A stretch of DNA of 64,000 nt from positions 13,319 to 77,318 of the IMG/VR virus record IMGVR_UViG_3300044655_001596. The stretch is one strand, 5' to 3'. The notes beneath the pieces are model-generated. The model saw only the letters and a program-made list of their open reading frames with translations. It was not told where the DNA came from and did no database searches. The position numbers and the translations under genes were made by a program. This DNA comes from a virus. Position 1 is the first letter of the stretch, and each line of letters begins with the position of its first letter. This document shows positions 17,654-60,240 of the stretch, piece after piece.

Positions 17654-17971
17654 ATGTCTGTTAAAATAGAAGCCTCTGATTCCATGCTTCCATCCCTTGA
17701 CTCTCTTAAAACAACGGCTTTGCCCATGCACAAATTATATTTCGAACTGAGTGATATTGACACATGGTATGCCATCATGCGTGAAGCACGAGCACAGTTC
17801 GGCAAAAACTGGCGTAGTCAGGCACATGTCAAACGACGACTAGAACACGCCAGTCTCTGGCGAGTGGATGGTCACGCAGAACGTGTGTGGTTTGAAGTGC
17901 CAGATCCCAAGTTCGGTACCTGGATAGCCATTAAACATGCTGTTAGACAGGTGCAACCACCCGGTAAATAA
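17654..17971 (+). CDS. hypothetical protein
   Basis: AAAGGA RBS; C-terminal FEVPDPKFGTWIAIK. Confidence 0.7.
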   Translation: MSVKIEASDSMLPSLDSLKTTALPMHKLYFELSDIDTWYAIMREARAQFGKNWRSQAHVKRRLEHASLWRVDGHAERVWFEVPDPKFGTWIAIKHAVRQVQPPGK

Positions 17972-17977
17972 TACTCT

Positions 17978-19480
17978 ATGATATTTGGATTTGCTATTCT
18001 CGCCACCGCATTGTTGTTAAGCATGGTGGCTGCTTATTACTCAGTAGCCGGATTGGTGGCCATATTTTCTGCGGCGACCATTCCGGTTATCATCATGGGT
18101 GGCAGCCTGGAACTGGGCAAGATTGCAGCCACAGTGTGGTTGCACAACAATTGGCGACGTGCTGGTTGGGCATTCAAGTTTTATCTTGTGCCTGCTGTGG
18201 CGTTTCTCATGATCTTGACTAGTATGGGTATTTTTGGATATCTATCAAAAGCACACAGTGATCAAAGTTTAGTGTCGGGCGATGTACAAAGTAAAATTGC
18301 CATCTATGACGAAAAGATCAAGACAGCAAAGGACAATATAGATGCGAACCGGAAGGCGCTTAGACAGATGGATGAAGCTGTGGACCAAGTTATGGGTCGA
18401 AGCAGTGATGAAAAAGGTGCCGACAAAGCTGTTGCAATCCGACGAGCACAGCAAAAAGAACGTGCAAGACTTCAATCCGAGATCGCGGCCGAACAGAAAA
18501 CAATTGCCGCCGTTAGCGAAGAACGTGCGCCAATCGCTGCCGAGGTTCGTAAGGTTGAAGCAGAAGTTGGACCGATAAAATACATTGCGGCCTTGCTGTA
18601 CGGAGACAACCCTGACAACAATCTGCTAGAACGTGCGGTGCGTTGGATGATCATAATGATTGTGCTGGTGTTTGATCCACTAGCACTAACCTTAATTCTA
18701 GCCGCCAACAAACAGTTTGAATGGGCACGACAAGGCACCGGAGGTTTTGTACACGACGAGCCCAAGTACGAGGCCGACGATGGTCCTTTAACTGACCAAC
18801 AAGTTGATCAACTCAACAAATCTGTTGAAGTGCTTAAAACAGACCCGCACCCACCAGGCTGGATGTTTGACAAGTTTCCTTATCTACAGGCTGGCGCGGC
18901 CATGTTCTTCAAAGACGTCAAACCCATGCCGGCTCAGTCTGACAATGACCAAGCGGCCATGAACATTGTTGCAGAACCTCCTGGTATAGAAACACGCCCA
19001 TTTACTCCTGACGAAATAGCGGCGCTGGAGGCGGCGGATCACGAAGATGAAGAGGATGATGCACTCAAAGCTGCCATTAGACAATGGAAAGCTGCCAACC
19101 CCGACGATACCTTGAAGAACCAACGTTTCAAATTGATGCGGGGAGAAATTGCTGAATTACCTTGGATGGGCTTGTTGGCTGACAATGAATCAAGAAAAGA
19201 AATAAACAGTGGGTTTGGCACACAGTTTCCACCACATGCCGAACGTGGCGATACCTTTGTAAGAGTTGACCGCCTGCCCACAGTGGTCTATAAGTACAAT
19301 GGTAAAGACTGGATAGAAGTTGACAAAAATCTAACAGACAGTTATACTTACGATATTGCTTATATTGATCACTTGATAGAGCGCATTGCATCTGGCGAAT
19401 ATGATGCTGAACTATTGAGTGAAATCGAGCGTGAGCAAGTGTCCCAACGTTTACAATCAAATACAAATACAAACACATGA
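17978..19480 (+). CDS. membrane protein with long coiled coil
   Basis: 3 N-terminal TM helices, coiled coil, 4th TM (VFDPLA), soluble tail; TAAATA box upstream; stop overlaps clpX start. Confidence 0.8.
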   Translation: MIFGFAILATALLLSMVAAYYSVAGLVAIFSAATIPVIIMGGSLELGKIAATVWLHNNWRRAGWAFKFYLVPAVAFLMILTSMGIFGYLSKAHSDQSLVSGDVQSKIAIYDEKIKTAKDNIDANRKALRQMDEAVDQVMGRSSDEKGADKAVAIRRAQQKERARLQSEIAAEQKTIAAVSEERAPIAAEVRKVEAEVGPIKYIAALLYGDNPDNNLLERAVRWMIIMIVLVFDPLALTLILAANKQFEWARQGTGGFVHDEPKYEADDGPLTDQQVDQLNKSVEVLKTDPHPPGWMFDKFPYLQAGAAMFFKDVKPMPAQSDNDQAAMNIVAEPPGIETRPFTPDEIAALEAADHEDEEDDALKAAIRQWKAANPDDTLKNQRFKLMRGEIAELPWMGLLADNESRKEINSGFGTQFPPHAERGDTFVRVDRLPTVVYKYNGKDWIEVDKNLTDSYTYDIAYIDHLIERIASGEYDAELLSEIEREQVSQRLQSNTNTNT

Positions 19481-20694
19481 AATCAAATGATCAAATCACA
19501 TCCTGCAGTTTTTGTGGAAAACACAAAGATGCAGTGGCTAAACTTATTGTAGGTGAAGGTGTTGCCATATGCAATGAGTGTGTGGAACTATGTGAAACTT
19601 TGCTGAAAGATGAAAATTTTGCCGGCACAGTCAGCCCTCCTGTTGTGATGGACCCTGAACACATAAAAAATCATCTAGATCAGTATGTGATTGGCCAGGA
19701 TCGTGCCAAACAGGTACTGAGCGTGGCAGTGGTAAATCATTACAAACGCATTAGTAATCCGGGAACTGATACTGAGATTGAAAAGTGTAACATTCTCATG
19801 CTTGGCCCAACGGGGTCGGGCAAAACATTGTTGGCACGTAGTGTAGCACGTTACTTGGATGTACCGTTCGTGATTGCCGATGCCACAAGTCTTACTGAAG
19901 CAGGTTATGTAGGCGACGACGTTGAGAGCTTGATCTCTAGATTGTTTGCCGCATCGGGCGGTGACATCGCCAAAACACAGCGCGGCATTGTGTTCATTGA
20001 CGAAATTGACAAAATCAGTCGCCGCAGTGAAAGTGCTTCAATCACACGAGATGTGTCAGGAGAAGGTGTACAACAGGCCTTGCTTAAACTGGTAGAAGGC
20101 ACCAAGTGCAGAGTCACTCCCACAGGAAATCGCAAGCATCCTTCAGGTGACATGATTGAGATTGATACCACTAACATCTTGTTTATTGCTGGTGGTGCGT
20201 TCGTGGGTCTTGATGCAGTGGTAAAAAATCGTGTGCGTGGAACTTCGATTGGTTTCAGTGCAAAAGTAAAAGACGACACAGAAACACACCTAGACCAAGT
20301 CACACCAGAAGACTTGATCAAGTTTGGTATGATTCCAGAGTTTGTGGGTCGTTTCCCTAGCTGGGTAGCACTCAACGAACTCAACAAAGAAGATTTGATC
20401 CGTATCTTGCTGGATGTCAAACACAGTTACATTGCACAATACTCTTGGTTGTTTGAACAAGACAAAGTAGAACTAGAATTCAGTGCAGAAGCCTTGGAAA
20501 TGATTGCAGATCGCACTATTCTAAACAAAACTGGTGCTAGGGGTTTGCACTCAGAGCTAGAACGTGTGTTACTCCCCCATATGTTTTATTTGGCCCGTTA
20601 TCGTAGGGAAGGAGTAAACCGCGTGTTTATTGATGCAGATCAGGTAAATACCCCTACAGAACTAAAGGAAGCAAATGGAAAAGCTAAGGGGTAG
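19477..20694 (+). CDS. clpX: ATP-dependent Clp protease ATPase subunit ClpX
   Basis: C4 zinc finger [20 protein letters not shown] pore loop, DEIDK, RKH loop, IGF loop, GARGL. Confidence 0.97.
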
Positions 20695-20899
20695 ATCAGT
20701 ACTGGTCACAGATGGTAACGTAGACAAAGCTCTACGTAAATTCAAAAAGAAAATTCAAACATCGGGCATCTTAGATGATGTTCGAGCCAAAGAGTTTTAC
20801 GAAAAACCCACTACAGAACGCAAACGCAAAAAGTCAGCGGCGCAAAATCGTTGGCGCAAAAAACTAGCCGAACAGGCTTTGCCCAAAAAACTTTATTGA
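20675..20899 (+). CDS. rpsU: ribosomal protein bS21
   Basis: [11 protein letters not shown]...[14 protein letters not shown]. Confidence 0.93.
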
Positions 20900-20929
20900 T
20901 AATGGGTTTTCGTGTATAATAAATAACTG

Positions 20930-20989
20930 TGTAGTGCCCATAGTGGGGCTACATCTAAGTCATCTTGCTTATAAAGGAGAAAACAAATG
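20930..20989 (+). promoter_or_regulatory. ROSE-like RNA thermometer in hsp20 leader
   Basis: 5' hairpin TGTAG..CTACA, then TCTTGCTT-ATA-AAGGAGA pairing the SD with a bulged G (U(U/C)GCU motif). Confidence 0.65.
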
Positions 20990-21445
20990 ACAAAAACTCT
21001 CACCCTTCGTAGTTTCGACATTCCCGCACTCACCAAATTTGGTATCGGTTTCGATAACATGTTTGATGAACTCATGCGTGTGAGTACTCAACAATCCTCA
21101 ACCAACTACCCGCCCTACGATATTGTACAAATCAATGACGACGAGTACATGATCAGTGTGGCTGTGGCCGGTTTTGGGCATGACAACCTTACTGTGACCA
21201 AGGACAAAAACTTCTTGATTATTGAAGGCAAGCACAGTCGTGAAACTGTGGAGAATGACGATGCCACTGCAAAATATTTGCACAAAGGTATTAGTGAAAG
21301 AAGTTTCCGCAGAGAATTCCAACTTGCGGATCATGTGGAAATTAGTAATGCTCACCTTGAACTAGGTATTCTCAGCGTTCACTTGCGACGTGAAGTGCCC
21401 GAAGAAGCCAAGCCAAAGACTATTGCTATCACATACACTTCCTAA
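20987..21445 (+). CDS. small heat-shock protein (Hsp20/IbpA)
   Basis: IGFD, NYPPYDI, AVAGF, YLHKGI, PEEAKPK. Confidence 0.95.
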   Translation: MTKTLTLRSFDIPALTKFGIGFDNMFDELMRVSTQQSSTNYPPYDIVQINDDEYMISVAVAGFGHDNLTVTKDKNFLIIEGKHSRETVENDDATAKYLHKGISERSFRREFQLADHVEISNAHLELGILSVHLRREVPEEAKPKTIAITYTS

Positions 21446-21502
21446 TATAATAGTGTAAATACAGTAGGGACGCGGTGTCCCTACTGCTAACAAGGAAACA
21501 AA

Positions 21503-21814
21503 ATGGCACAAAGCGAAACTAAAACTAGAATCAAACCCTTAGAATCTGTGCAAGAGCCGCCCTTGTACCGTGTGGTCTATCTCAATGACAATCAAACCAC
21601 GTATGAATTTGTGGTAGAGACTTTGATTGAATACTTTGACTACACCGCAGAAACCGCAGAACAAATCACAATAGACATCCATGATGCGGGATCAGCTGTG
21701 GTAGCAGTGCTGCCATACGAGATTGCTGAACAAAAAGGTGTGGAAGTGACCATGCTGGCACGAGCACAAAGTTATCCACTGCAAATCAAACTAGAACCAG
21801 AACCTGTTGGTTAA
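21503..21814 (+). CDS. clpS: ClpS N-degron adaptor
   Basis: PPLYRVVYLNDNQTTYEFVV, IHDAG, EIAEQK, YPL. Confidence 0.93.
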   Translation: MAQSETKTRIKPLESVQEPPLYRVVYLNDNQTTYEFVVETLIEYFDYTAETAEQITIDIHDAGSAVVAVLPYEIAEQKGVEVTMLARAQSYPLQIKLEPEPVG

Positions 21815-22599
21815 AAATCAATCACAATGCGTTGTGGATAGTACACATGCCGTGAATATTTGGTATGTTGTCGTCCACGACAGTTGTTGACAAATCGAAT
21901 ACCCGACCGTGTTTGGTCTACTGATCCATGGTAGTGTCCAAAACACCAAGTATGAATCTTGTTTTCGGTGTCGGCTGCCATGGCCTGCATCATGAGTCTG
22001 TTGCCCATGGTATTGAATTTCATGCTACCGTCTAGATCGATGTCATGAGCAATCAGGGCTGGATCGGGCACAGTATGAGTGACCATCACAATCTTTCGAA
22101 CATCTGCATGCCGTTGCAGTTTTTGCACACTGTTAATCATGTAACTAGCATCGTTGTTACTGAGTCTTGCTATGTTTTTGGTGGCTGCGGCGCTCATGTT
22201 GTATTTTTCTTGCACCCATTGATCCACTTGATCAGGATCAATTCCTAGATCAAAATCAAATCCAAACCAGCCATTGGTACCTAGAATAGCAACTCCATCA
22301 ACAATTACCACGTTGTCTTGTAAGTACACTATATTGGGTATGCGTTTGATACGCCGCACAAGATCGCTGTAACTGGAACCAAGATCTTCAAGATAATTAT
22401 AATGCTCGTCATTCCCGTCAATGTAAAACACAGCCTGATAGCATCGTCCAAGATGTCTAAGGGTACGTGTGACAGTGTCGCGATCCCGGGCAATATCCCC
22501 AGCAACTACGCACACTGGGCTGGTGGCCTGATGATGCCAATCCAGTTGATCCCAGGTTTCTACGTGTAGGTCTGAAATTAAATCAAATGCAAAACTCAT
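21811..22599 (-). CDS. calcineurin-like metallophosphoesterase (atypical GNDE motif)
   Basis: SDLH, AGD, GNDEH, THTVP, FGHYH. Confidence 0.88.
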   Translation of the reverse strand: MSFAFDLISDLHVETWDQLDWHHQATSPVCVVAGDIARDRDTVTRTLRHLGRCYQAVFYIDGNDEHYNYLEDLGSSYSDLVRRIKRIPNIVYLQDNVVIVDGVAILGTNGWFGFDFDLGIDPDQVDQWVQEKYNMSAAATKNIARLSNNDASYMINSVQKLQRHADVRKIVMVTHTVPDPALIAHDIDLDGSMKFNTMGNRLMMQAMAADTENKIHTWCFGHYHGSVDQTRSGIRFVNNCRGRQHTKYSRHVYYPQRIVIDF

Positions 22600-22623
22600 G
22601 ATACATATTTAAAAGGAAATAAC

Positions 22624-22980
22624 ATGAACATAATATTTGGCGACGCCATCAAAGAGATTCCGGACAGTTTTACAATATTAGAACTAGACACATTTCGCAC
22701 ACCCAAGGACGAGTTACGAACAGCATATTGTGTGGTAGAAACCATACCCCTGTCAGAATTTGCCACGCTGGAAGACTATAAAAAAATACATGCTGATCTT
22801 GTAAAGTTCTATCGAGAACGGCAATGGAACTATTGCGAACATGCAATAGAAGGACTCATGGGACGTTGGAATGGTGAGCTTGACACATTCTACACCAATC
22901 TATTGAGTCGTGTGATGCACTTGAAAGAAAATCCGCCGTCAGACGACTGGGATGGATTCACTGTTAGGCAAAGTAAGTAA
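22624..22980 (+). CDS. stand-alone protein resembling the C-terminal part of class III nucleotide cyclases
   Basis: LELDTFR, YRERQW, PPSDDWDG. Confidence 0.55.
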   Translation: MNIIFGDAIKEIPDSFTILELDTFRTPKDELRTAYCVVETIPLSEFATLEDYKKIHADLVKFYRERQWNYCEHAIEGLMGRWNGELDTFYTNLLSRVMHLKENPPSDDWDGFTVRQSK

Positions 22981-28182: not shown

Positions 28183-28219
28183 TTTGGCCTAAATACTTGT
28201 GAACTACAAAGGAGAAATC

Positions 28220-29263: not shown

Positions 29264-29266
29264 AGG

Positions 29267-29294
29267 TACCCCAAAATTTTTGGGGTATTTTTTT
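29267..29294 (+). terminator. intrinsic terminator after pstS
   Basis: TACCCCAAAA/TTTTGGGGTA + T run. Confidence 0.85.
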
Positions 29295-29334
29295 GTCTGT
29301 GTTTAATGATTTGCGCACAGGCTTAAATATCTAT

Positions 29335-29499
29335 ATGAGTTGGTTCAAACGAATTCCACACCGTTATCCCCCAGCCCCGCCTGCCTCTGCTCCGCATAGA
29401 ACTAGTCCTGCTACTGATCGGGCACTAGAAGAGTCCAAGTCGCTGGGTCCAAAAACCCGTAAGAAAACTGTCAAAAAGCCCCCACTAAATAAGGCATGA
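29335..29499 (+). CDS. small basic Pro-rich protein
   Basis: TAAATA box 5 nt before ATG; overlaps next gene. Confidence 0.45.
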   Translation: MSWFKRIPHRYPPAPPASAPHRTSPATDRALEESKSLGPKTRKKTVKKPPLNKA

Positions 29500-30170
29500 A
29501 ACCCACCATAGCCCTATTCCTGCACGACCCCAAGTGTAGTGTACAAAGCGGTAATGGGCTCATGCGAGCCCTGGGCGATCACTACAAGTTCAAAATATTC
29601 GGGCGCAATCAGCTGGAAGACACATTTTTTGAAGATGTAGACATGGTTGCTGTGCCCGGCGGTATTGGTGACGCAGACACCTTTGACGGGCTGTTCAAAC
29701 ACAGTGCCGAACGTGTGAGGCAATTTGTTGACGGTGGTGGCCGGTATCTAGGAATCTGCATGGGCGCATACTGGGCAGGAAGCGCATATCTTGACATCTT
29801 GGATGGGGTAGATGCAGTACAATATATCCGCCGCCCGGGAACAGACACACGCAGACCACATGCCAAAAACTTGCCTGTGTTATGGCAAGATCGTTATGGA
29901 AGTGTTGAGCCTTGGAAGATGTTTTTTTATGATGGGTGTGCGCTGGTGGGAGACCGTACCAAGTTCAAGACTCTGGCCACGTACATGAATGGCGACGCCA
30001 TGGCAATTATACAAAACAACATTGGCCTAATAGGATGTCATCCTGAAAGTGAACAATTCTGGTACGACAGTTACTCATGGATGCGTGGTCGATATCACAG
30101 AGGACAACACCATACCCTGTTGTTGGACTTTGTAGATCAGTTAATGCACACGAAGCCGAGCAAGCCTTAA
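29496..30170 (+). CDS. BPL-N / class I glutamine amidotransferase-like protein
   Basis: VPGG, YLGICMGAY nucleophile elbow, GCHPE. Confidence 0.85.
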   Translation: MKPTIALFLHDPKCSVQSGNGLMRALGDHYKFKIFGRNQLEDTFFEDVDMVAVPGGIGDADTFDGLFKHSAERVRQFVDGGGRYLGICMGAYWAGSAYLDILDGVDAVQYIRRPGTDTRRPHAKNLPVLWQDRYGSVEPWKMFFYDGCALVGDRTKFKTLATYMNGDAMAIIQNNIGLIGCHPESEQFWYDSYSWMRGRYHRGQHHTLLLDFVDQLMHTKPSKP

Positions 30171-30848
30171 CAGTCTAAACAGGCTGAGCCACATCCAGCC
30201 TATGTCAAACTCCCACCACTTTTTAGAGAGGCGGGCACTCGCTGGTTCCAGGTGGTGGTTGTTGTGCAACTCTTCGCCACCAATAACAATACCCCAAGGG
30301 CTAATATTGCGACTATGATCTTTAGTTTTGCCATTACGATATCCTATCCAATGTCCTACACCGTTGATGACTCCAGCTGCCCAGAAAGGAATCCACAGCA
30401 TCTGAATGCCCCAAATCAACACTCCCCACCAACCAAATATCAAGACATCTAGCATAAAGAGAATGCCAATGCCAAGTCTAGAGTGAGGCTGGTATACGTG
30501 AAGCTCCATCCAATCAGCAGGAGTACCAACACCATATGTATTAACCATATCCGTATCTTTTGATGCTTCATGATATAACCCTGCTCCTTTAAAAAACACT
30601 CTTTTGATTCCATACACATGTGGTGAGTGTGGATCTCCATCCGCATCGCTAAATCTATGATGTTTGCGATGTATGGCCACCCACTGTTTGGTTACCATGC
30701 CTGTGGTCAACCATAACCAGGCTCGCATAAAGTGTTCAAGTATGGGATGAAATTCTATGCCTCGATGTGCTTGGCCACGATGCAAATACAACGTGACACA
30801 AACGATAGTAATGTGTGTCATTGCCAGTGTTGCGATTAGTTCTGTCAT
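30141..30848 (-). CDS. membrane fatty-acid (acyl-CoA/lipid) desaturase
   Basis: His boxes HRGQAH, HRKHH, HNNHH; WWEFDIGW. Confidence 0.93.
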   Translation of the reverse strand: MTELIATLAMTHITIVCVTLYLHRGQAHRGIEFHPILEHFMRAWLWLTTGMVTKQWVAIHRKHHRFSDADGDPHSPHVYGIKRVFFKGAGLYHEASKDTDMVNTYGVGTPADWMELHVYQPHSRLGIGILFMLDVLIFGWWGVLIWGIQMLWIPFWAAGVINGVGHWIGYRNGKTKDHSRNISPWGIVIGGEELHNNHHLEPASARLSKKWWEFDIGWMWLSLFRLLRLARLRVH

Positions 30849-30859
30849 AGTTTATTTAA

Positions 30860-30884: not shown

Positions 30885-31136
30885 TTATTTTGCAGGAGTT
30901 TTTCGTGTTCGTGTTGGTCGAGCCGTTGTGGGTTTGGCAGCTGGGGTTGTTTTGGGTTTAGCAGGTGCTCTTGGTTTTTTAATAGGCACAGGTGCTACCA
31001 CTGAAGCTGGTTCCGATGCTGTTTCGATTGGTTTGGGAAACGGCCAATCGGTACCTGGCGTTTCAATTTTGTAAGGTGCCTTGGTCTCCACTGCTGTTGG
31101 TTTGCCAAAAAAGAATTCTTTAATTTTTTGAAACAT
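30885..31136 (-). CDS. Lys/Pro/Ala-rich small protein
   Basis: AGGAGA RBS, TAAATA box upstream; APYKIE motif, histone-like tail. Confidence 0.7.
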   Translation of the reverse strand: MFQKIKEFFFGKPTAVETKAPYKIETPGTDWPFPKPIETASEPASVVAPVPIKKPRAPAKPKTTPAAKPTTARPTRTRKTPAK

Positions 31137-31201
31137 AATGTTCTCCTATGTTGTATTTAACAATTTAGTGACCATTCACTAGGAAAAACCACCGTTTTAT
31201 A

Positions 31202-33730: not shown

Positions 33731-33789
33731 GCCCAAAAACGGCGTATAAATAAAAGCGGTGCTAAAAACACCGCTTTCTCCACTTTAAA

Positions 33790-34365
33790 ATGACCATTGA
33801 AACCACACAAACAATTGAGCAGACTCACACCCAAGCCTTGGCCGACAACGGTATGTATGTTTTCATGGGCGAGGTTGACAATGACAACATCAAACCTATA
33901 ATTGAATGGATCCTGCACGAGAACTTTGTGACCAAGAGAAAACGCAAAGAACTCTTGCTGATGATTTGCTCAGAAGGTGGGGACATGAGTTCGGCATTTG
34001 CCTTGATTGATGTCATGCGCAGTTCTGTCATTCCAATCAAAGTTGTGGGACTGGGGCAGATTGCCAGTGCTGGATTATTGATCTTTTTAGCAGGAACACC
34101 GGGTCGTAGAACGCTCACTCCCAATACATCAATCATGAGTCACCAGTATGCCTGGGGCAGTGATGGCAAACATCACGAGCTGTTGGCCACAATTAAAGAG
34201 TTTGAGCTAACACAAACCCGTATGGTACAGCACTACATAGATTGTACAGGGTTAGATGAAGCCCAAATCAAGCAACACCTGTTGCCACCGCATGATGTTT
34301 ATTTAGGTGCAGACGATGCCTTGCGTTTGGGCATTTGCGACCATATCAGCCAACTGTCTCGTTAA
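33790..34365 (+). CDS. ClpP-like protease (divergent paralog)
   Basis: SEGG, GQIASAG (Ser), MSHQ (His), HDVYL (Asp); TATAAATA upstream. Confidence 0.9.
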   Translation: MTIETTQTIEQTHTQALADNGMYVFMGEVDNDNIKPIIEWILHENFVTKRKRKELLLMICSEGGDMSSAFALIDVMRSSVIPIKVVGLGQIASAGLLIFLAGTPGRRTLTPNTSIMSHQYAWGSDGKHHELLATIKEFELTQTRMVQHYIDCTGLDEAQIKQHLLPPHDVYLGADDALRLGICDHISQLSR

Positions 34366-38134: not shown

Positions 38135-38250
38135 TTTAAGTACAAGGCCTTGGCTTCGATTATTCTTCCTTGTCTAGCCAGTACTGAGGCTGCACGGGCT
38201 TGACCCATGGCTTCAAAAAATTTCCAAAATCCCTGTAGAACTTGTTTCAT
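38131..38250 (-). CDS. 39-aa microprotein (not in ORF track)
   Basis: MKQVLQGFWKFFEAMGQARAASVLARQG; GGAGG RBS, ATGA overlap. Confidence 0.65.
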   Translation of the reverse strand: MKQVLQGFWKFFEAMGQARAASVLARQGRIIEAKALYLK

Positions 38251-38408
38251 ACGTAACCTCCAGATTGTTTTTGATAATACTGACGTTCAAAGTACTCAAC
38301 GTCGGCTGTGGACTTGGGGTAATGGCTGGAGATGTAACGTTCTAAACGGGATTGGTAATCCTGTCGAGGAAACATCTCGGCCAATCTTTTTAAGATTTCT
38401 GCTAACAT
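38247..38408 (-). CDS. DUF3563-like microprotein (53 aa, not in ORF track)
   Basis: LERYISSHYPKSTADVEYFERQY; AAGGAG RBS and TAAATA box upstream. Confidence 0.7.
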   Translation of the reverse strand: MLAEILKRLAEMFPRQDYQSRLERYISSHYPKSTADVEYFERQYYQKQSGGYV

Positions 38409-38480
38409 GATATTGTCTCCTTCTCAGTATTTACCACTAGTGGTTTCTACTTATATTATATTATTATCACAATCGCTAGG

Positions 38481-38509
38481 TTGACCAATAATTTGCCTTT
38501 TGCTATAAT
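38481..38509 (+). promoter_or_regulatory. sigma70 early-type promoter
   Basis: TTGACC-17-TATAAT, ATG 6 nt downstream. Confidence 0.85.
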
Positions 38510-38515
38510 ACTTAT

Positions 38516-38941
38516 ATGCTTTATTTTGCCTATGGAATGAACACCAACACACAAGGAATGGCCACTCGCTGTCCGGGTGCCGTGGCGTTTGGCCGTGCTC
38601 GTTTGTTGGGACACCGGTTTCGATTTGCAGGACCAGCTGATGTACAAGTTGACCGCAGAGATTTTGTAGACGGTGTGCTGTGGGATATCACGGAAGATTG
38701 CCTAAAATCCCTGGACCTGCTGGAAGGCTATCCCTACTATTACGACCGCAAGTGGGCCACAGTGGAGCATGATCAGGGCGAATATCCTGCTCTTGTTTAC
38801 TACATGCAACCAGGCAATCGCAATCATGCCCCAGGTTCGGGCTATTTTAACATGGTTTTAGAGGGCTACAAGGAGTTTGGAGTTCCTACTAAGCAACTCT
38901 GGGAAAATGTAACCCAAAGTACTACCTTTTTACCCTACTAA
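38516..38941 (+). CDS. gamma-glutamylcyclotransferase (AIG2-like)
   Basis: YFAYGMN, GVLW, LDLLEGYP..Y. Confidence 0.9.
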   Translation: MLYFAYGMNTNTQGMATRCPGAVAFGRARLLGHRFRFAGPADVQVDRRDFVDGVLWDITEDCLKSLDLLEGYPYYYDRKWATVEHDQGEYPALVYYMQPGNRNHAPGSGYFNMVLEGYKEFGVPTKQLWENVTQSTTFLPY

Positions 38942-39017
38942 ACTGTAGGGTTTTTCTGGTTGACCAGAATTACCCGTTTTGCTATAATATACACATAGAC
39001 AGCAAAAAGGAGCCCAA
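38916..39017 (+). promoter_or_regulatory. operator + terminator + promoter cassette
   Basis: GTACTAC 38919; ACCCTAC/GTAGGGT + T run; TTGACC(38960)-17-TATAAT; AAGGAGCCC. Confidence 0.85.
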
Positions 39018-39269
39018 ATGCGACACGTACCAGGTTTTAGTAACAGCACCCGAATTCGCTACATTGTCAACGGTTTTGGCATGTACGGCACCATCAACGA
39101 CATCTACACAAAAACAGCCACAGTCACGCATGGTGCGGCTCTGCGCCTGGCAATCCAAAAATTGGCTTACGATCGCCGTCACAGTAGTTTTCGGGGAGAG
39201 GGTCGCCCAGTGGGCATCGGTATCACCCACGAAGGAATCCAAGTGCAAATTGACTTGATGGCCAACTAA
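39018..39269 (+). CDS. hypothetical early protein
   Basis: Own promoter and RBS. Confidence 0.75.
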   Translation: MRHVPGFSNSTRIRYIVNGFGMYGTINDIYTKTATVTHGAALRLAIQKLAYDRRHSSFRGEGRPVGIGITHEGIQVQIDLMAN

Positions 39270-39345
39270 AAGTACTACTTTTTTGGTTGACCAGAATTTC
39301 CCAATTTGCTATAATATACGCATACAGACACAAAAGGAGCCCACT
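39270..39345 (+). promoter_or_regulatory. operator + promoter cassette
   Basis: GTACTAC 39272; TTGACC(39287)-17-TATAAT; AAGGAGCCC. Confidence 0.85.
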
Positions 39346-41358: not shown

Positions 41359-41425
41359 ATTACGCTCTTTATATGCTGTGTAAACCTATTTATCAAAGGT
41401 ACGTAGAAAAAGAAAATAGGGCCGT

Positions 41426-42301: not shown

Positions 42302-42328
42302 AAAAAGGCCGGCAACGGCCTTTTTTTG
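42302..42328 (+). terminator. intrinsic terminator
   Basis: AAAAAGGCCG-GCAA-CGGCCTTTTTTT. Confidence 0.9.
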
Positions 42329-42341
42329 TTTTAAATAGTTT

Positions 42342-43220
42342 ATGATTATTGAAGGCACTTCGCGATGTACACTGGCATGTCCTGCATGCCCTAGGACATG
42401 GTTCTCAGACAAATTTGGTCGACCATTCCCCAAACACGATCTCGACATTGATGCATTTTCTCGGTTTATGGATTGTGAGTCAGGACGACAAGTTTGTACT
42501 TTTTCTTTAAACGGAAATCATGGCGATGTGATATATTGGCCAGAATTGTTTGATTTTTTAGAAACTTTTAAAAACAAAAAATTCATCATAAGCACAAACG
42601 GAAGCCACCAACGTCCTGAGTTTTGGAAAAAACTATCAACTCATCTAAAAGTTGGAGATACAGTGTTTTTTAGTATTGATGGTCTTGAGGACACCAATGG
42701 TCTCTATAGACGTAATGCAGATTGGCCCAGCATCATGCAGGCTATTGACATCATGCGACACAGTGATGCAACTTTGGTATGGAAAAGCCTGGTATTTTCC
42801 AGCAACCAACACCAACAACAACAAATGGCAGACCTAGCCAATAGTTTCGGCATGAAATTTGTAAGTGATGTTACCAACAGATTTGGTGACGAGTCATTGA
42901 GACCTAGTGAAAATCTAGTGCTGACTGATCGTAATCCCGATATAACTGTAACCAAAATAGAACCTCGATGCAGCGATCTGGAGTATGTGAGTGCAGATGG
43001 TTATTATTGGCCTTGTTGTATGATATCATCTATGTTTACCTTGCAGAAAACACCTCTTTGGAAACAGCGTGACCAATGGCTTATACATAATCAAACTTTG
43101 GACCGGGCCCGAGAAACATTAGAAACTTTTAAAAAACTGATGGTAGCAGATCCTCATGTGGTGTGCCAAATGCATTGCAAAGAAGGGCAAAAAGATTTCT
43201 TGTGGACAAGAATGAATTGA
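42342..43220 (+). CDS. radical SAM protein
   Basis: CTLACPAC, GNHGD, STNG, FSIDG, C-terminal PCC..C..C. Confidence 0.9.
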   Translation: MIIEGTSRCTLACPACPRTWFSDKFGRPFPKHDLDIDAFSRFMDCESGRQVCTFSLNGNHGDVIYWPELFDFLETFKNKKFIISTNGSHQRPEFWKKLSTHLKVGDTVFFSIDGLEDTNGLYRRNADWPSIMQAIDIMRHSDATLVWKSLVFSSNQHQQQQMADLANSFGMKFVSDVTNRFGDESLRPSENLVLTDRNPDITVTKIEPRCSDLEYVSADGYYWPCCMISSMFTLQKTPLWKQRDQWLIHNQTLDRARETLETFKKLMVADPHVVCQMHCKEGQKDFLWTRMN

Positions 43221-43780: not shown

Positions 43781-43793
43781 AAGTAAATATATC

Positions 43794-44147
43794 ATGGAAT
43801 TACTAAGTTTTATAATTGATCTTGTGCTGGCAGGTATTGTGACATGGTTTGTTTTTACCTGGTTGGTAAGTCGTTATTTGGAAAACCAAATCAGGACTGT
43901 AGTGAGAGACCTCGATCAGGAACAGTTGATTCCACTCACAGTAGAGGTTGACCAAAATCAATACTTCTGCTACAATAGCATTACCAAGGCATTTGTGTGC
44001 CAGGGACACAGTTTGAAAGAAATCGTAGACAGATTTAAACAACGTTATCCAGAAAAGTCTGCTGCTATCTATGATGGCGACGAGACTGCGGTGCGTACAC
44101 TTAAATCACAATTGAAAGACTTAGATGAAAATCGCGGTAGCATCTGA
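43794..44147 (+). CDS. membrane-anchored hypothetical protein
   Basis: N-terminal TM; FVCQG motif; TAAATA 4 nt before ATG. Confidence 0.7.
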   Translation: MELLSFIIDLVLAGIVTWFVFTWLVSRYLENQIRTVVRDLDQEQLIPLTVEVDQNQYFCYNSITKAFVCQGHSLKEIVDRFKQRYPEKSAAIYDGDETAVRTLKSQLKDLDENRGSI

Positions 44148-46316: not shown

Positions 46317-46545
46317 TTACCCACACGGCGCACAAATAACCTGGGGTCGCCCTTACGACACAATCACTGCCTGGGACGAGATTGCCACCTGGGGCATAGA
46401 GTTTTTTGGACTACCTGGCGACCGTTATGTTACCGACATAAACATCAATGAAATGGTTTGGTGGTTCCGTGATCCAAGAGACCAAACTCTGTTTGTGTTA
46501 CGCAATGGCTTGGCTCGATGCATAGAGTTAGAATTGAACACATAG
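46303..46545 (+). CDS. hypothetical protein (FxLKW-like family)
   Basis: FGLPGDRY...WWFRDPRDQTLFVLR. Confidence 0.6.
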   Translation: MQHPDYPHGAQITWGRPYDTITAWDEIATWGIEFFGLPGDRYVTDININEMVWWFRDPRDQTLFVLRNGLARCIELELNT

Positions 46546-46739
46546 CTCCAATGGCCGCAATTGAACTAAAAGATCAATTGCTTGCAGACGGATTAGTTAT
46601 CAACAGAGATTTTGTTTGGGAATATCGCCAGGCAACTTATGACAATGACGGGTTCACTGCTGTTACTCCCAAACAAGCAACCTTCTCATTCTTCAAACCA
46701 GCCATGGCCACATTCTATCAGCTCAAATGGGCAAGATAA
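46518..46739 (+). CDS. hypothetical protein (FxLKW-like family)
   Basis: FSFFKPAMATFYQLKW. Confidence 0.6.
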   Translation: MHRVRIEHIAPMAAIELKDQLLADGLVINRDFVWEYRQATYDNDGFTAVTPKQATFSFFKPAMATFYQLKWAR

Positions 46740-46748
46740 GTATTTTCG

Positions 46749-47546
46749 ATGATTACAAAGATATTAACCACAATCTTGTTATGTGTGACTTTGTCAGCTC
46801 ATGCCGACAGCGTGTTGTTGTACAACCTCTCACAAGATCGAACAGTAATGAGTCGCGATGCTGACCAGGTGCGTAGCATTGCCAGCATAACCAAAATCAT
46901 GACTGCCATGGTTACTCTAGATTATGACATAGACCTTAGCCGTAAACTGATGTTGAGCAAGCGTGTTCACAGTTACCTTCCCAGGCAAATGTACACTCGA
47001 GAACAACTACTCAAGGCCATGTTGATCAAATCAGACAATGCGGCGGCTGAAACTCTAGCAGAAGATTACCCTGGCGGCAGGTCTGCATTTGTTGCTAGAA
47101 TGAATCACCAAGCCCGGTTGTGGGACATGAAACGGACCAGCTTTGTTGACCCTTCGGGGCTGGGAGTATTCAACATCAGCACAGCCAGAGACGTGGCTGA
47201 CCTCATGCAAACCGCCATGGGATACTGGTTGATTCGCGAAGTCAGTGGTCAAAAGCAAGTGGCATTTGAAACCAAGTACGCCAAGAAAATTAGAACAATA
47301 AATTTGGAACACACGTCCGGACCATTGCTGTTTACGTTTGACAATGTATTGGTCAGCAAAACAGGATTGACCAATGCCGCGGGCTGGTGTGTGGGCATGG
47401 TAGTGGAGCAAAACAAACAACAATATGTGGTGGTAGTGTTAGGATCAAAAAACAAAAAACAACGCCTGGACACAGTAAAGGATATTCGCTACAATCATGT
47501 GGTGGACACTTATTTGCGAGAGCTGGAGATTCCCACTACATACTAA
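46749..47546 (+). CDS. peptidase S11 D-Ala-D-Ala carboxy/endopeptidase (PBP7-like)
   Basis: Signal peptide; SITK, SDN, KTG motifs. Confidence 0.92.
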   Translation: MITKILTTILLCVTLSAHADSVLLYNLSQDRTVMSRDADQVRSIASITKIMTAMVTLDYDIDLSRKLMLSKRVHSYLPRQMYTREQLLKAMLIKSDNAAAETLAEDYPGGRSAFVARMNHQARLWDMKRTSFVDPSGLGVFNISTARDVADLMQTAMGYWLIREVSGQKQVAFETKYAKKIRTINLEHTSGPLLFTFDNVLVSKTGLTNAAGWCVGMVVEQNKQQYVVVVLGSKNKKQRLDTVKDIRYNHVVDTYLRELEIPTTY

Positions 47547-51986: not shown

Positions 51987-52099
51987 AAAGTAATACTCTA
52001 GTACTACAAAAACCCTACAGAAATGCAGGGTATTTTTTTGGTTGACCAAAAATGCCCGATTTGCTATAATAGTGGCATAGAGAGTAACAAGGAGCCCAA
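51987..52099 (+). promoter_or_regulatory. operator + terminator + promoter cassette
   Basis: AAAGTAATACTCTAGTACTAC; ACCCT..AGGGT + T run; TTGACC(52042)-17-TATAAT; AAGGAGCCC. Confidence 0.85.
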
Positions 52100-52417
52100 A
52101 TGTCCAAACTGCTGATCACCACCCAAGTTTACGAAAACTACGCCTGGCGCGAAGATGGTACCATTGGTACTGGCGCCGAAGCCTATTGGAAGGCCAAGGG
52201 CGGTAGCGATTACGTTATTCGCAACATCGACATCAACCGTGTGCAAGAGCTGGCCAAGTCCGCCTGCGCTCAGGTTGAGCAAGCCAGTGATTATTTCACT
52301 GAAACTGTGATTGGCTGGGAAGTGGTGGCTGACGACTACCTTACGGAGTTTGAACAGGATCAGTTGGAGTTCGAAGGCAAGATCAGGTTCCCTGCACAGG
52401 AACTGAGCGTGGCTTGA
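52100..52417 (+). CDS. hypothetical early protein
   Basis: TQVYENY..YWKAKGG phage motif. Confidence 0.8.
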   Translation: MSKLLITTQVYENYAWREDGTIGTGAEAYWKAKGGSDYVIRNIDINRVQELAKSACAQVEQASDYFTETVIGWEVVADDYLTEFEQDQLEFEGKIRFPAQELSVA

Positions 52418-52419
52418 GG

Positions 52420-52448
52420 TTGACCAGAAATTGCCAATTTGCTATAAT
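52420..52448 (+). promoter_or_regulatory. sigma70 early-type promoter
   Basis: TTGACC-17-TATAAT. Confidence 0.85.
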
Positions 52449-52479
52449 ATACACATATTGAAACACAAAGGAGTCTAAG

Positions 52480-52977
52480 ATGGGCACACGTAGTCGCATT
52501 GCAGTCATGCACGGAGAAATTGCAAAGTCAATCTATTGTCATTGGGACGGCTATCTGGAGCACAACGGTGCCATCCTTCAGGAGCACTATGATTCTGCCA
52601 AAGCCAATGAATTGGTTTCTCTAGGCGACATGAGTGCTTTGCGTCCTGAAATTGGCACACCACATGCCTTCAGTCAGTTTGAACTGGAAGAAATGGATCG
52701 CGAAGAATTTGTTAGAACAACAGAAAACATGTGTACCTTTTACGGTCGCGATCGTGGCGAGGAAAACGTTGGCTGGAAAGTGGCTCACACCTTTGAGGAG
52801 TTCTTTGAACAGGTTGACAACTGTGGCGGCGAGTGGTACTATGTCATGCAGGATGGTGCATGGTATTGCGGCAATACATACTCAAGCGATGCCCGTTTCT
52901 ACAAAAAACTAGTACTTTTAGCTGAAGCCCTTGCGGATCAAGTGGTTGAAGAAGACGCAAAAACGGTTGACCAATAA
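52480..52977 (+). CDS. conserved phage early protein (MGTRS/YCHWDGY family)
   Basis: SIYCHWDGY, LGDMS, YGRDRGE. Confidence 0.8.
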   Translation: MGTRSRIAVMHGEIAKSIYCHWDGYLEHNGAILQEHYDSAKANELVSLGDMSALRPEIGTPHAFSQFELEEMDREEFVRTTENMCTFYGRDRGEENVGWKVAHTFEEFFEQVDNCGGEWYYVMQDGAWYCGNTYSSDARFYKKLVLLAEALADQVVEEDAKTVDQ

Positions 52978-53025
52978 TTCCCTATTTGCTATAATAGTGG
53001 CATAGAGAGTAAAAAGGAGTCCAAG
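52965..53025 (+). repeat. promoter-leader cassette, near copy of 52040-52099
   Basis: Shared ATTTGCTATAATAGTGGCATAGAGAGTAA; TTGACC(52967)-17-TATAAT. Confidence 0.85.
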
Positions 53026-53271
53026 ATGAGCATTGAAATTGAATACAATCTGACTGGTGCTGTAAAAGATTACGGCATGTTTAGCGAACTTGGCAACGCC
53101 GCAGTCCACGCCATTGTGGTTGCCGCCCGTGCCAACAACCTGACTTGGCCCCAGACCTATCGTGCTCTGCACCAACTGTCCGAACAAAAAGAATTTGGTG
53201 AGGCCATGGACACTGAAGTGCGCGAATGCGTGTACTCTGCACTGAATTTTGACACACCTTTTTACTGCTAA
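53026..53271 (+). CDS. hypothetical early protein
   Basis: YGMFS..GNAAV..EAMDTEVRE motif. Confidence 0.75.
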   Translation: MSIEIEYNLTGAVKDYGMFSELGNAAVHAIVVAARANNLTWPQTYRALHQLSEQKEFGEAMDTEVRECVYSALNFDTPFYC

Positions 53272-54055: not shown

Positions 54056-54064
54056 GGAAATTGT

Positions 54065-57133: not shown

Positions 57134-57214
57134 ACTGCGCCGTTTACTCCAAAACGGCACCTTTTTGGCCCGGTCTTTGCCCGGTTCTGCAACCATCGAG
57201 TAAGTAAAACTACC

Positions 57215-57790
57215 ATGAAAGCACAAGTAAACCACATCAGCGATCAACTCGCAATCTGGAGTTCAAGAGCCTTCCGAGTCCTAGGACTTTGGATTGTGGC
57301 CTTGGCTGTGATTGCTGTGAGCAATCACAAACTCAACGAACTCCGCTCGGGCGTGGAGGCCATGCCTGCAGGGTATGTGTCGGCCCAAGAAAAAATTCGA
57401 TCCTTGGATTGCCTAACACGCAACATCTACTGGGAAGCCGCATCAGAGCCTTTTGAAGGCAAAGTAGCAGTGGCGCAAGTCACCATGAACCGTGTGGCCC
57501 ACGGAAAATTTGGTGACAGTGTCTGCGGGGTGATCTATCAGAAAAATGTATTCTACGAAAAGGTAATTTGTCAATTCAGTTGGGTGTGCGAAACCACACA
57601 CAAGACTCGACCAGTGTATCCGCCCTTGTGGGCTGAATCTGAACTGGTGGCCAAGAAAGTCTTGTTAGAAAACTTTAGATTACCAGGCTTAAAGAACGCA
57701 TTGTACTATCATGCAGATTATGTTAGCCCGGGCTGGAAATTACCTAAAATTGACCAAATTGGTCGTCACATTTTCTACGGAGAAAGATAA
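57215..57790 (+). CDS. cell wall hydrolase (SleB/Hydrolase_2)
   Basis: CLTRNIYWEA, AVAQVTMNR, CQFSW, YYHADYV, IGRHIFY; N-terminal TM. Confidence 0.92.
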   Translation: MKAQVNHISDQLAIWSSRAFRVLGLWIVALAVIAVSNHKLNELRSGVEAMPAGYVSAQEKIRSLDCLTRNIYWEAASEPFEGKVAVAQVTMNRVAHGKFGDSVCGVIYQKNVFYEKVICQFSWVCETTHKTRPVYPPLWAESELVAKKVLLENFRLPGLKNALYYHADYVSPGWKLPKIDQIGRHIFYGER

Positions 57791-58104: not shown

Positions 58105-58107
58105 AAA

Positions 58108-58143
58108 GTACTACTTGACACAAAATCCATGATCTGCTATAAT
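58108..58143 (+). promoter_or_regulatory. operator + sigma70 promoter
   Basis: GTACTAC abutting TTGACA(58115)-17-TATAAT. Confidence 0.8.
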
Positions 58144-58164
58144 AAAGCATGATTAGAAATTGCT

Positions 58165-58386: not shown

Positions 58387-58747
58387 TCTCAACGGCCGCA
58401 AGAAGGGCAAAGTCAAGTTTCGTAATGCCGAAGAGGCTCGCAAGGCACGTGAGCTTGACGCTAGTTGGAAAGAACTCCAAAAGAAGTGGGAAGTGGACGC
58501 TGACGAGAAGAAGCGTCGACGTGCTATGAAAGCAGAAACTTTGGTATACAAATTGGCCGCGCCTGCAGGTCGTAGCACCACACATCATATTCCCAGTGTC
58601 AACACCGGTGGCAACGCCACCTTGGCTGCACCCAAAGTGTACACTGGCACCAAGGTCAAAGGTATTGCCACCATGCACAAGTCAAATGCTGTGCCTGTAT
58701 TTTCGGACGAAGAGGCTGTGGAAATCAGTCGCATGCGTCGCGGATGA
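58355..58747 (+). CDS. conserved T4-like basic protein
   Basis: YTGTKVKGIATMHKSNAVPVF..ISRMRR. Confidence 0.8.
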   Translation: MSMHLHHPSLSLNGRKKGKVKFRNAEEARKARELDASWKELQKKWEVDADEKKRRRAMKAETLVYKLAAPAGRSTTHHIPSVNTGGNATLAAPKVYTGTKVKGIATMHKSNAVPVFSDEEAVEISRMRRG

Positions 58748-59004
58748 AAGACCTATACTCCACGCCCGAAGCCAGATTGGATACCATACTGGGCCAGGTC
58801 TCTTTTTGGGCCAGGATGCAACGGTGCAAAACATCTGAAGAAGGTAAGAAGAATTGTACCACAAGCGTAGACACAATCACATGGTTTAGGGACACTTGGG
58901 GTATACAACTGATACCCTCGGATGATACCATATTTGGATTCCAGCGCCAGGTCAACATTGTGGACGAGCAGAAGTACATGATTTTTTTATTGAAGTGGTC
59001 ATGA
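58744..59004 (+). CDS. hypothetical protein (FxLKW-like family)
   Basis: IVDEQKYMIFLLKWS. Confidence 0.65.
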   Translation: MKDLYSTPEARLDTILGQVSFWARMQRCKTSEEGKKNCTTSVDTITWFRDTWGIQLIPSDDTIFGFQRQVNIVDEQKYMIFLLKWS

Positions 59005-59042
59005 AGAAAAAACGTTTATTAACCTTTAAAGGAGATTTTGAA

Positions 59043-59447
59043 ATGGGTGGTATGTGGGAAAAAGATGAAGTGGTGCGCTTGCTCAAAGGTGCGCCAGGTA
59101 CTCAGTATCAAGAAGGTGACGATCAAGTCAAAGAACAGATCCGTTCATGGGTAAGGGGTCTGCTGACCAACAGCGAAATTAGTGTGACATTCATCAAAGC
59201 AGATGGCACTGACCGTGACATGCTGTGTACCCTGGACGGGTCTAGGATTCCAGTCAGTGTAACAAAGCCGGTAGTACTGACCGCAAGTACCGCACCAGTG
59301 GATGGCATTGTGCGTGAAAGCAAAAAGCCTCGAAAAGAACCTGATCCACACAGTATCCGCGTGTTTGATTTGGAAAAGCAAGAATGGCGCAGTTTCCGTT
59401 TTGATAGACTCAAAAAGGTCACGGCCACTTTGGATTTCAATAAGTAA
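59043..59447 (+). CDS. WYL-like (WYL_2/SH3) domain protein
   Basis: VTFIKADGTDRDMLCTL..VFDLEKQEWRSFR. Confidence 0.8.
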   Translation: MGGMWEKDEVVRLLKGAPGTQYQEGDDQVKEQIRSWVRGLLTNSEISVTFIKADGTDRDMLCTLDGSRIPVSVTKPVVLTASTAPVDGIVRESKKPRKEPDPHSIRVFDLEKQEWRSFRFDRLKKVTATLDFNK

Positions 59448-59453
59448 TACTCA

Positions 59454-59672
59454 ATGGCCAAAGAAGATATTATCAACATGGAAGGGAGGGTAGAAGAAGT
59501 TTTGCCCGCCGCCATGTTCCGGGTAAAACTAGACAACATCAACAATCTAGTTCTAGCACACTTGTCCGGGCGTATGCGTAAGAACAACATCAAAGTCCTA
59601 CTGGGAGATCGGGTAGAAATAGAATTTTCACCTTACGATCTTACCAAGGGTCGTATTACCCGCCGCAAATAA
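59454..59672 (+). CDS. infA: translation initiation factor IF-1
   Basis: [44 protein letters not shown]. Confidence 0.96.
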
Positions 59673-59679
59673 ATACAAC

Positions 59680-60240
59680 ATGGACACAACAGCCTCTTTA
59701 AGCGATTTTATCAACATAGTGGAAGCCAGCACTCGTCCGGCCAAACTAGAAACTACTCCTCTCCCTTATGGCATCAAAGACCTTGAACCTGTGATGAGTG
59801 AAGAAACCATCAACTATCATTTTGAACATCTAGCCAAAGGCTATGCAAAGCGTTACAACGCAGGAGAAGGCAATGCGGATTTTAATCGTGCTGGCAGTTT
59901 TTTACACAATAAGTTCTTCCCTCAGCTTCGGGCTCCTAAAGGTGCCAACCGGCCCCGTGGTGCAGTACTCGCGCTGATAGAAGAAAAGTTTGGAACCTGG
60001 GAAGACTTCAAGGAGCAGTTTAAAGAAGCCGCAATGAAGATCCAAGGGTCTGGTTGGGTTTATTTGAGCACTGGGGGTGATATCAAGACCATTGCCAATC
60101 ATGCTGTGCGTACCGACATTTGTGTGCTGGTGGATTGGTGGGAACATGCCTGGGCACTAGACTATCAATCAGACAAAGAAAAATATTTAGACAACATTTG
60201 GAAAATTATTGACTGGGACGTTTGCAACGAACGTCTCTAA
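59680..60240 (+). CDS. Fe/Mn superoxide dismutase with N-terminal extension
   Basis: LPY..LEP..SEET..YH, LHN, GSGW, DWWEHA. Confidence 0.92.
   Translation: MDTTASLSDFINIVEASTRPAKLETTPLPYGIKDLEPVMSEETINYHFEHLAKGYAKRYNAGEGNADFNRAGSFLHNKFFPQLRAPKGANRPRGAVLALIEEKFGTWEDFKEQFKEAAMKIQGSGWVYLSTGGDIKTIANHAVRTDICVLVDWWEHAWALDYQSDKEKYLDNIWKIIDWDVCNERL

Follow-up and report, generated by a model that had tools for sequence, protein, structure and literature searches.

TAAATA late-promoter boxes set a few nucleotides before start codons suggest leaderless late mRNAs in a clade of lake phages

What kind of message does a phage gene yield when a promoter-like box ends only a few nucleotides before its start codon? 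This question is raised by a stretch of 64,000 nucleotides (nt), bases 13319-77318 of the 77,318-bp IMG/VR viral contig IMGVR_UViG_3300044655_001596, from an uncultured lake phage. The whole stretch is called the window below, and positions are counted from its first base. A first-pass annotation noticed the hexamers TAAATA or TAAGTA 4–8 nt before the ATG of 11 genes with no Shine-Dalgarno (SD) sequence in between, and proposed that T4-like late promoters give rise there to leaderless or nearly leaderless mRNAs, toward which ribosomes would be biased by a phage-encoded ribosomal protein bS21, initiation factor IF-1 and an ArfA-like factor. In the analysis reported here, the late box and its fit to leaderless transcripts have found support in the sequence, and the link to bS21 and IF-1 and the ArfA-like factor have not. 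The boxes are probably gp55-type late promoters fused to start codons, which would produce leaderless or near-leaderless late mRNAs.

The arrangement is present at all 11 starts, as TAAATA in eight and as TAAGTA in three, and the only SD-like tetramer found in the 11 spacers is a partial AAGG, before position 29496. The start assignments are sound, with the exception of the one at 29335, since in nine of the 11 cases the frame offers no start earlier than the ATG, seven of the 11 ATGs have an in-frame stop 6–12 nt upstream, and the Pfam alignments of the desaturase, radical SAM, peptidase S11 and IF-1 proteins begin at residues 4–20. With a box 4–8 nt before the ATG and no ribosome-binding site, the messages probably begin at the start codon or next to it.

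The contig is 22% complete according to CheckV, so that the full genome should measure about 340 kb. Relatives, which were identified from the IF-1 and gp55-like genes, have sizes of 320–365 kb, apart from one of 436 kb (G016), and terminal repeats occur in several of them. IMG/VR contains more than 600 gp55 relatives and 470 IF-1 relatives of this clade. Judged by the portal protein, the cultured phages closest to it are jumbo myoviruses (Phosso, Atu_ph07, PA5oct and the RaK2/CBB group), with about 50% identity, and a megablast search of 20 kb against GenBank phages returned no near-identical cultured phage. The main comparison genome, G001, is a complete relative of 349 kb.

A comparison of box-to-start distances with shuffled controls, proposed in the first-pass annotation as a check, gave a clear enrichment. 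Based on gene calls that miss three of the 11 starts, TAA[AG]TA begins 9–14 nt ahead of the start codon in 10 of the 116 called genes of the contig, whereas 1000 shuffles of these upstream stretches (60 nt each) yielded 1.03 ± 0.96 such genes and at most 5. Similarly, 32 genes of G001 have a near box, against 3.2 ± 1.8 in shuffles. When gene calls were set aside and hexamers were scored for an ATG 3–8 nt downstream that opens a frame of at least 60 codons, such an ATG followed 8 of the 42 TAAATA copies in the contig and 30 of the 138 in G001; for composition-matched hexamers the proportion was mostly 0–6% in the contig and mostly 1–5% when both genomes are considered, and TAATAA, TAAATC, TAAATG and TAAATT were not enriched. 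The codon that opens a long frame after the box was ATG in 29 cases, TTG in three and GTG in none. More generally, TAAATA is the commonest hexamer in the region 6–36 nt upstream of starts, where 17 of its 42 copies lie.

The pattern extends across the clade, with 297 TAAATA-N4-5-ATG sites in 11 further complete genomes against 78 for the reversed control pattern. It is this fusion of box and ATG, found in about half of the box-associated genes, that distinguishes the clade from T4 and from Phosso, Atu_ph07, PA5oct, Munch and CBB: no enrichment was detected in T4 (10 sites against 12 controls) or in the other five phages combined (60 against 96).

Boxes fall into two spacing classes. In the first, the box starts 10–13 nt before the start codon, which is nearly always ATG, no SD lies between and a pyrimidine occupies position -1; in the second, the distance is 21–32 nt and an SD is found in between. 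The distribution in G001 is sharply bimodal: the distance from box start to ATG is 10 nt in seven genes, 11 nt in 12, 12 nt in three and 13 nt in five, and a second cluster follows at 21–32 nt. The near class peaks at 11 nt in G001 and at 10 nt in the window. None of the 32 near-class genes of G001 has an SD-like tetramer, compared with 152 of its 342 other genes (p = 4e-8), and a pyrimidine stands at -1 in 25 of the 32, compared with 168 of 342 (p = 0.0016). Since the usual dinucleotide at transcription starts consists of a pyrimidine (-1) and an A (+1), this gives the leaderless start indirect support.

The surroundings of the near boxes are also informative. Eight of the 32 near sites of G001 lie in divergent intergenic regions, and two of these regions hold back-to-back TAAATA/TAAGTA pairs (274518-274546 and 325677-325701), in which each box is 5 nt from its own ATG and the spacers between genes measure 23 and 27 nt. 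In the window, terminators or terminator-like hairpins stand directly 5' of three boxes. Divergent spacers of 23–27 nt and adjoining terminators leave no room for another promoter or for a leader. The position of the box has moreover been kept in evolution. The TAAGTA of the IF-1 gene is invariant at -13 in about 45 relatives while the coding sequence upstream of it varies, as does, when read by eye, the end of the upstream frame (two frames). In about 50 of 80 relatives, the box of the adjacent superoxide dismutase (SOD) gene stands 4–6 nt before the ATG, even in some where 18–37 nt separate it from the preceding stop of IF-1; its spacing from the ATG is thus held while the spacer sequence and the distance to that stop vary.

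The box itself, with TAAGTA as a weaker variant, is very probably the late promoter of the clade, because relatives encode a gp55 homologue and because boxes precede virion genes. In T4, the late promoter TATAAATA occupies positions -13 to -6 and is read by gp55, together with gp33 and the gp45 clamp; the late box of Aeromonas phage Aeh1 is CTAAATA (PMC1524935). The jumbo phages CBB and GAP32 have ATAAATA before structural genes as well as a gp55-like gene, and neither gp45 nor gp33 is reported in the CBB paper (PMC5259590). A protein of the gp55 family was found in all four near-complete relatives searched (G001, G003, G004 and G005), with matches to phrog_234 at about 1e-24 and to phrog_12791 at 1e-60 to 1e-73; compared directly with T4 gp55, the clade homologue is 32% identical over the core (BLASTP, 4e-9). 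In G001 the gp55 homologue is encoded at 65007-65927. The genes for the baseplate wedge, tail sheath, tail fibre and virion proteins of this genome stand behind far-class boxes, the portal gene behind a near-class one. In the 15 nt upstream of 75 boxes no position is conserved beyond a weak G at -2, in a matrix that stops short of the canonical -35 region. The T4-like late promoter claimed by the annotation therefore finds support in the core motif, in the absence of a conserved -35 element from the positions seen, in the gp55 homologue of relatives and in the virion genes that carry the box; what differs from T4 is that the positions equivalent to the first TA of TATAAATA are not conserved. 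The region 33745-33790 contains the only full copy of TATAAATA on the contig, with a terminator-like hairpin (AAAGCGGTG...CACCGCTTT) behind it and, further on, ATG 33790, which lacks an SD.

The proposed mechanism starts from host RNA polymerase carrying the phage gp55-type sigma factor, which would read TAAATA without a -35 element. In the far layout, a box 21–34 nt from the start codon would give a short leader with an SD, as predicted for bS21 and for the sheath, baseplate and fibre genes of the relative. In the near layout, a box that ends 4–8 nt before the ATG would place the transcription start at the A of the start codon or no more than about 3 nt from it, and the resulting mRNAs would be translated through recognition of the 5'-terminal AUG, without SD pairing. 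T4 geometry, with its box at -13 to -6, places +1 on the A when TAAATA starts 11 nt before the ATG. Leaderless translation is known to require AUG (PMC4611024), and a -10 element that lies close to the start codon at a constant spacing, without an SD, is regarded as a genomic signature of leaderless transcription (PMC12340547). The fixed distance between box and ATG is thus what leaderless or near-leaderless late mRNAs, as first proposed, would be expected to display.

Several points weigh against this reading. Every transcription start site is deduced from the DNA sequence, as are the late timing of the auxiliary genes of the window and their mode of translation. The commonest spacer in the window is 4 nt, which under strict T4 geometry would put +1 on the T of the ATG, so that the start has to be assumed one base closer to the box; conversely, the 6–8-nt spacers (17978, 46749, 57215 and IF-1) predict leaders of 1–3 nt, which are not strictly leaderless. 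The desaturase ortholog of G001 (210069-210767, minus strand) has an SD-like GAAGG and no box, whereas the window gene has a box, which indicates that the two layouts interchange in evolution. Where the box overlaps the upstream stop codon (17978, 59454 and 59680 and, by eye, 46749), translational coupling could serve the genes concerned. As for the machinery, gp55 has no match on the 77-kb contig, which represents about 22% of a genome, and was found only in relatives; the gp45 clamp (phrog_223) has no match in five relatives, although the same search found none in control genomes either.

Among the other explanations, the likeliest regards the near box as a translational signal on longer transcripts that start at promoters further upstream; the signal would be an A/U-rich enhancer or a ribosome-binding element of a non-SD type. 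Initiation can be helped by A/U-rich elements that precede a start codon, co-directional arrays contain many of the near-class genes, and the transcripts may be longer than proposed above. We nevertheless consider this explanation unlikely. The enrichment is specific to TAAATA/TAAGTA and is not shared by A/T hexamers of matched composition, and the same hexamer stands 21–32 nt upstream of virion genes with an SD, where it cannot serve as a ribosome-binding site. In addition, the terminators directly 5' of three window sites and the 23–27-nt spacers shared by the divergent pairs of G001 speak against it, as do the pyrimidine at -1 and A at +1, a signature of transcription starts, and the presence in the clade of a homologue of gp55, whose T4 relative reads this very motif.

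A second explanation, which was the core of the first-pass annotation, holds that phage bS21, IF-1 and an ArfA-like factor reprogramme host ribosomes toward leaderless late mRNAs. Two of these three proteins are real: bS21 (gene 20675-20899) matches PF01165 with 71.3 bits (4.4e-21; match 20696-20854), and IF-1 matches PF01176 with 78.2 bits (3.7e-22) over residues 8–71 of 72 and is 57–63% identical to proteobacterial IF-1. Both genes carry a late box, far for bS21 and near for IF-1, and they are predicted to be late genes of the same programme; both are present in 11 of 12 complete clade genomes. Support also comes from the literature, since a preference of phage bS21 for phage late transcripts has already been proposed (PMC9723584) and since infection by the Thermus phage phiYS40 is described as raising host IF2 and lowering IF3 (Sevostyanova et al., 2007, as related in PMC3594737). 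However, no ArfA-like gene could be recovered: PF03889 matches nothing on the contig even at E ≤ 10, a six-frame scan returned no KGKGS-type motif, and no rescue factor was found among ten small neighboring proteins, for which Pfam gave WYL_2, Hsp20, ClpS, radical SAM and an Fe-S assembly protein.

The distribution of the genes does not support a bias of ribosomes by bS21 and IF-1 either. As both are nearly universal in the clade, their co-occurrence with the near layout is uninformative. The complete genome G004 (IMGVR_UViG_3300027759_000045; 346,856 bp, with terminal repeats) encodes IF-1 and no detectable bS21, yet it has 30 box-N4-5-ATG sites, as many as the others, and the Sinorhizobium phage Phosso encodes IF-1 without enrichment of such sites. 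Many late genes of the clade, including bS21 itself and the main tail genes, use SD leaders. Furthermore, Escherichia coli ribosomes that lack bS21 and uS2 translate the leaderless lambda cI message better (PMC10491246), so the published link to leaderless translation is the loss of bS21 and not its excess, and leaderless initiation depends on IF2 and is opposed by IF3, with no role on record for IF-1 (PMC4611024). Ribosome reprogramming by this set of proteins is therefore very doubtful, and a functional link between bS21 or IF-1 and the leaderless class is speculation. The same low likelihood attaches to a two-channel late programme, in which SD-led mRNAs would supply abundant virion proteins, leaderless ones would supply dozens of auxiliary proteins, and late IF-1 and bS21 would retune host ribosomes to set the balance between the channels or to favor phage messages.

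Finally, the idea that the pattern is a by-product of TAA stops and short A/T-rich spacers in packed operons, with coupling or re-initiation downstream, draws on the four stop-overlapping boxes named above, but it is highly improbable and largely refuted, since such overlap concerns only three of the ten classified near-class sites of the contig and five of the 32 of G001, the TAA-containing hexamers TAATAA, TAAATC, TAAATG and TAAATT show no enrichment, the spacing between SOD box and ATG is the same even 18–37 nt beyond the IF-1 stop, the IF-1 box, when the sequences are read by eye, remains TAAGTA whichever of two frames the upstream gene ends in, and shuffled upstream sequences give ten-fold fewer sites.

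Both elements of the proposed system have precedents: gp55-type TAAATA promoters are known in jumbo phages, and leaderless late mRNAs are known in phages. No description of a gp55-type box fused to a start codon and giving leaderless mRNAs was found in the searchable literature. The closest precedent for a phage that pairs leaderless late mRNAs with altered initiation factors is phiYS40, in which, according to the same secondary account, most middle and late mRNAs are leaderless (Sevostyanova et al., 2007, via PMC3594737). As far as that account goes, the two cases share a temporal class of leaderless phage mRNAs and a possible change in the initiation machinery. They differ in that the start sites of phiYS40 were mapped experimentally, whereas those of the clade are sequence-based predictions, and in that phiYS40 alters host IF2 and IF3, whereas the clade encodes IF-1 and bS21 and has a gp55-like promoter. 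The phylum of the phiYS40 host, Deinococcus-Thermus, itself commonly uses leaderless mRNAs, and like other bacteria rich in such messages it resembles the clade in having a -10-type element whose distance from the start codon is short and constant, and no SD (PMC12340547). However, the element in Deinococcus-Thermus is the -10 box of the host sigma-A, whereas here it is a phage late-sigma box that coexists with strongly SD-led early and late genes.

The huge freshwater phages with bS21 described by Chen et al. (2022; PMC9723584), in which phage bS21 is hypothesized to favor phage late mRNAs, are also lake phages of about 300–350 kb with a bS21 expressed or predicted late. Their bS21 gene lies on the reverse strand in a block with terminase, capsid and portal genes, whereas here it lies between ClpX and Hsp20/ClpS, and their predicted hosts are Bacteroidetes, which do not use SD sequences, whereas the present phage makes heavy use of AAGGAG (PMC9723584). 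Leaderless mRNAs, promoters and IF-1 are not mentioned in that study (PMC9723584). A modest enrichment of the near layout was detected in the Pelagibacter (SAR11) phage HTVC008M, with 16 TAAATA-N4-5-ATG sites, often as TAAATAGTAnnATG, against 7 controls. This cultured phage, which is T4-like and said to encode bS21, differs from the clade in its size (147 kb), its marine origin and its weaker enrichment, as judged from pattern counts only.

The individual near-class sites of the window mostly precede auxiliary enzymes and not classic late structural genes. TAAATA at 17965-17970 overlaps the upstream stop and stands 7 nt before ATG 17978, the start of a 500-aa protein (17978-19480) whose G001 ortholog retains TAAATA at 11 nt. 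On the minus strand, TAAATA at 22606-22611 is separated by 6 nt from ATG 22599 of a metallophosphoesterase gene (21811-22599), and box and spacer are identical in G001; the box lies within a 24-nt divergent intergenic region shared with the gene at 22624, which has an SD leader. TAAATA at 29324-29329, just downstream of a terminator-like hairpin (29264-29290), is 5 nt from ATG 29335, which opens a 54-aa frame of uncertain coding status. The weakest case among the 11 is TAAATA at 29486-29491, with a 4-nt spacer to ATG 29496 of a GATase-like protein (29496-30170), as the partial AAGG mentioned above falls within the spacer and the start overlaps the 54-aa frame (ATGA).

Four-nucleotide spacers are also found at the next three sites. 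On the minus strand, TAAATA at 30853-30858 precedes ATG 30848 of the fatty-acid desaturase (30141-30848) and has an intrinsic terminator (30881-30866) immediately 5' of it; on the plus strand, TAAATA at 42332-42337, again directly behind a terminator (42302-42325), precedes ATG 42342 of a radical SAM protein (42342-43220), and TAAATA at 43784-43789 precedes ATG 43794 of a 117-aa protein with a hydrophobic N-terminus (43794-44147). The three TAAGTA boxes, all on the plus strand, stand 6 nt before ATG 46749 of a D-Ala-D-Ala carboxypeptidase of family S11 (box 46737-46742, gene 46749-47546), its TAA being read by eye as the stop of the upstream open reading frame 46518-46739; 8 nt before ATG 57215 of a SleB-type cell-wall hydrolase (box 57201-57206, gene 57215-57790); and 7 nt before ATG 59454 of IF-1 (box 59441-59446, gene 59454-59672). 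The last site, TAAATA at 59670-59675, borrows its TAA from the IF-1 stop and is 4 nt from ATG 59680 of the Fe/Mn SOD (59680-60240). A tblastn search of G001 found no orthologs of the carboxypeptidase, the GATase-like gene or the 54-aa frame. Two further TAAATA copies directly abut an ATG (that of the DNA ligase, at 12463, and that of a gene about 3.5 kb before the window) and were not counted as promoters of those genes, because transcription from a box so placed would begin within the coding sequence.

Far-class boxes are exemplified by TAAATA at 20645-20650, 30 nt before the ATG of bS21 with AAAGGAAG in between; a box upstream of bS21 is also present in G001. On the same strand, TAAATA at 322-327 lies 30 nt before GTG 352 of a 595-aa protein (AAAGGA in between), and TAAATA at 28190-28195 lies 30 nt before ATG 28220 of a gene that ends at 29221 (SD AAAGGAG). 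On the minus strand, boxes are found at 31154-31159, 23 nt before ATG 31136 (SD TAGGAG; gene 30885-31136), at 38428-38433, 25 nt before ATG 38408 of a 53-aa frame (SD GAAGGAG; 38247-38408), and at 41387-41392, 34 nt before ATG 41358 of a 143-aa protein (weak SD AAAGAG). Early genes, as the annotation had stated, rely on strong SD leaders: a TTGACC-N17-TATAAT promoter followed by AAAGGAG precedes, for example, 39018, 39346, 52100, 52480 and 53026. Cassettes of this type, with a TG in the promoter, are repeated in near-identical form before small genes at 38481-39315 and 52050-53030.

The neighborhoods of bS21 and IF-1 deserve a brief description. The bS21 gene is part of a proteostasis cluster that comprises a ClpX-like ATPase (19477-20694), bS21 (20675-20899), Hsp20 (20987-21445) and ClpS (21503-21814), and TAAATA at 20920 and at 21456 is followed by hairpin-containing leaders before Hsp20 and ClpS, respectively. 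The gene just upstream of IF-1 (58995-59447) encodes a protein with a WYL_2 (Sm-like SH3) domain (7e-10) and ends inside the conserved TAAGTAAT. Downstream of IF-1, the SOD homologue (59680-60240) has an N-terminal extension (..I.L.EASTRPAKLE..) that is conserved in dozens of relatives (loci L003-L076), and it adjoins, at 60247-62040, a 489-aa radical SAM protein followed by an Fe-S assembly protein of the IscA/HesB type. A second radical SAM protein is encoded at 42342, and it seems that the phage supplies Fe-S support of its own.

The contig also carries replication and nucleotide-metabolism genes (primase, DnaB, ribonucleotide reductase and ligase), and its auxiliary enzymes comprise the metallophosphoesterase, the desaturase, the radical SAM proteins, the D-Ala-D-Ala carboxypeptidase, the SleB-like hydrolase and the SOD. 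With regard to the host, the closest bS21 (95% identity) and a close IF-1 (83%) lie on contigs binned to a Haliscomenobacter metagenome-assembled genome (loci L186, NZ_JBBAKG010000057.1, and G020:C49:16105-16317). These contigs look phage-derived, either binned alongside their host or placed there by a binning artefact. The IF-1 of that Haliscomenobacter genome itself is 54% identical to the phage IF-1, and a Polaromonas IF-1 is 63% identical; the phage protein is thus closer to the proteobacterial one. A host among the Bacteroidota is disfavored by the phage's heavy use of AAGGAG.

Should the predicted start sites prove correct, roughly 15–45 leaderless late mRNAs per genome would be made in a clade of lake phages that is both abundant and widespread, and minimal gp55-type promoters would drive leaderless messages in phages that otherwise rely on strong SD leaders. 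The clade would then offer a natural system in which to study how leaderless messages are translated in SD-using bacteria, what a phage gains from dividing its late genes between two modes, and how a promoter of only 8 bp can at the same time be everything that lies upstream of a gene. In these phages, start prediction may be less reliable with gene callers that look for an SD. The box could also serve as a cheap predictor of late genes among the many genes of the clade that are of unknown function or encode auxiliary metabolic proteins.

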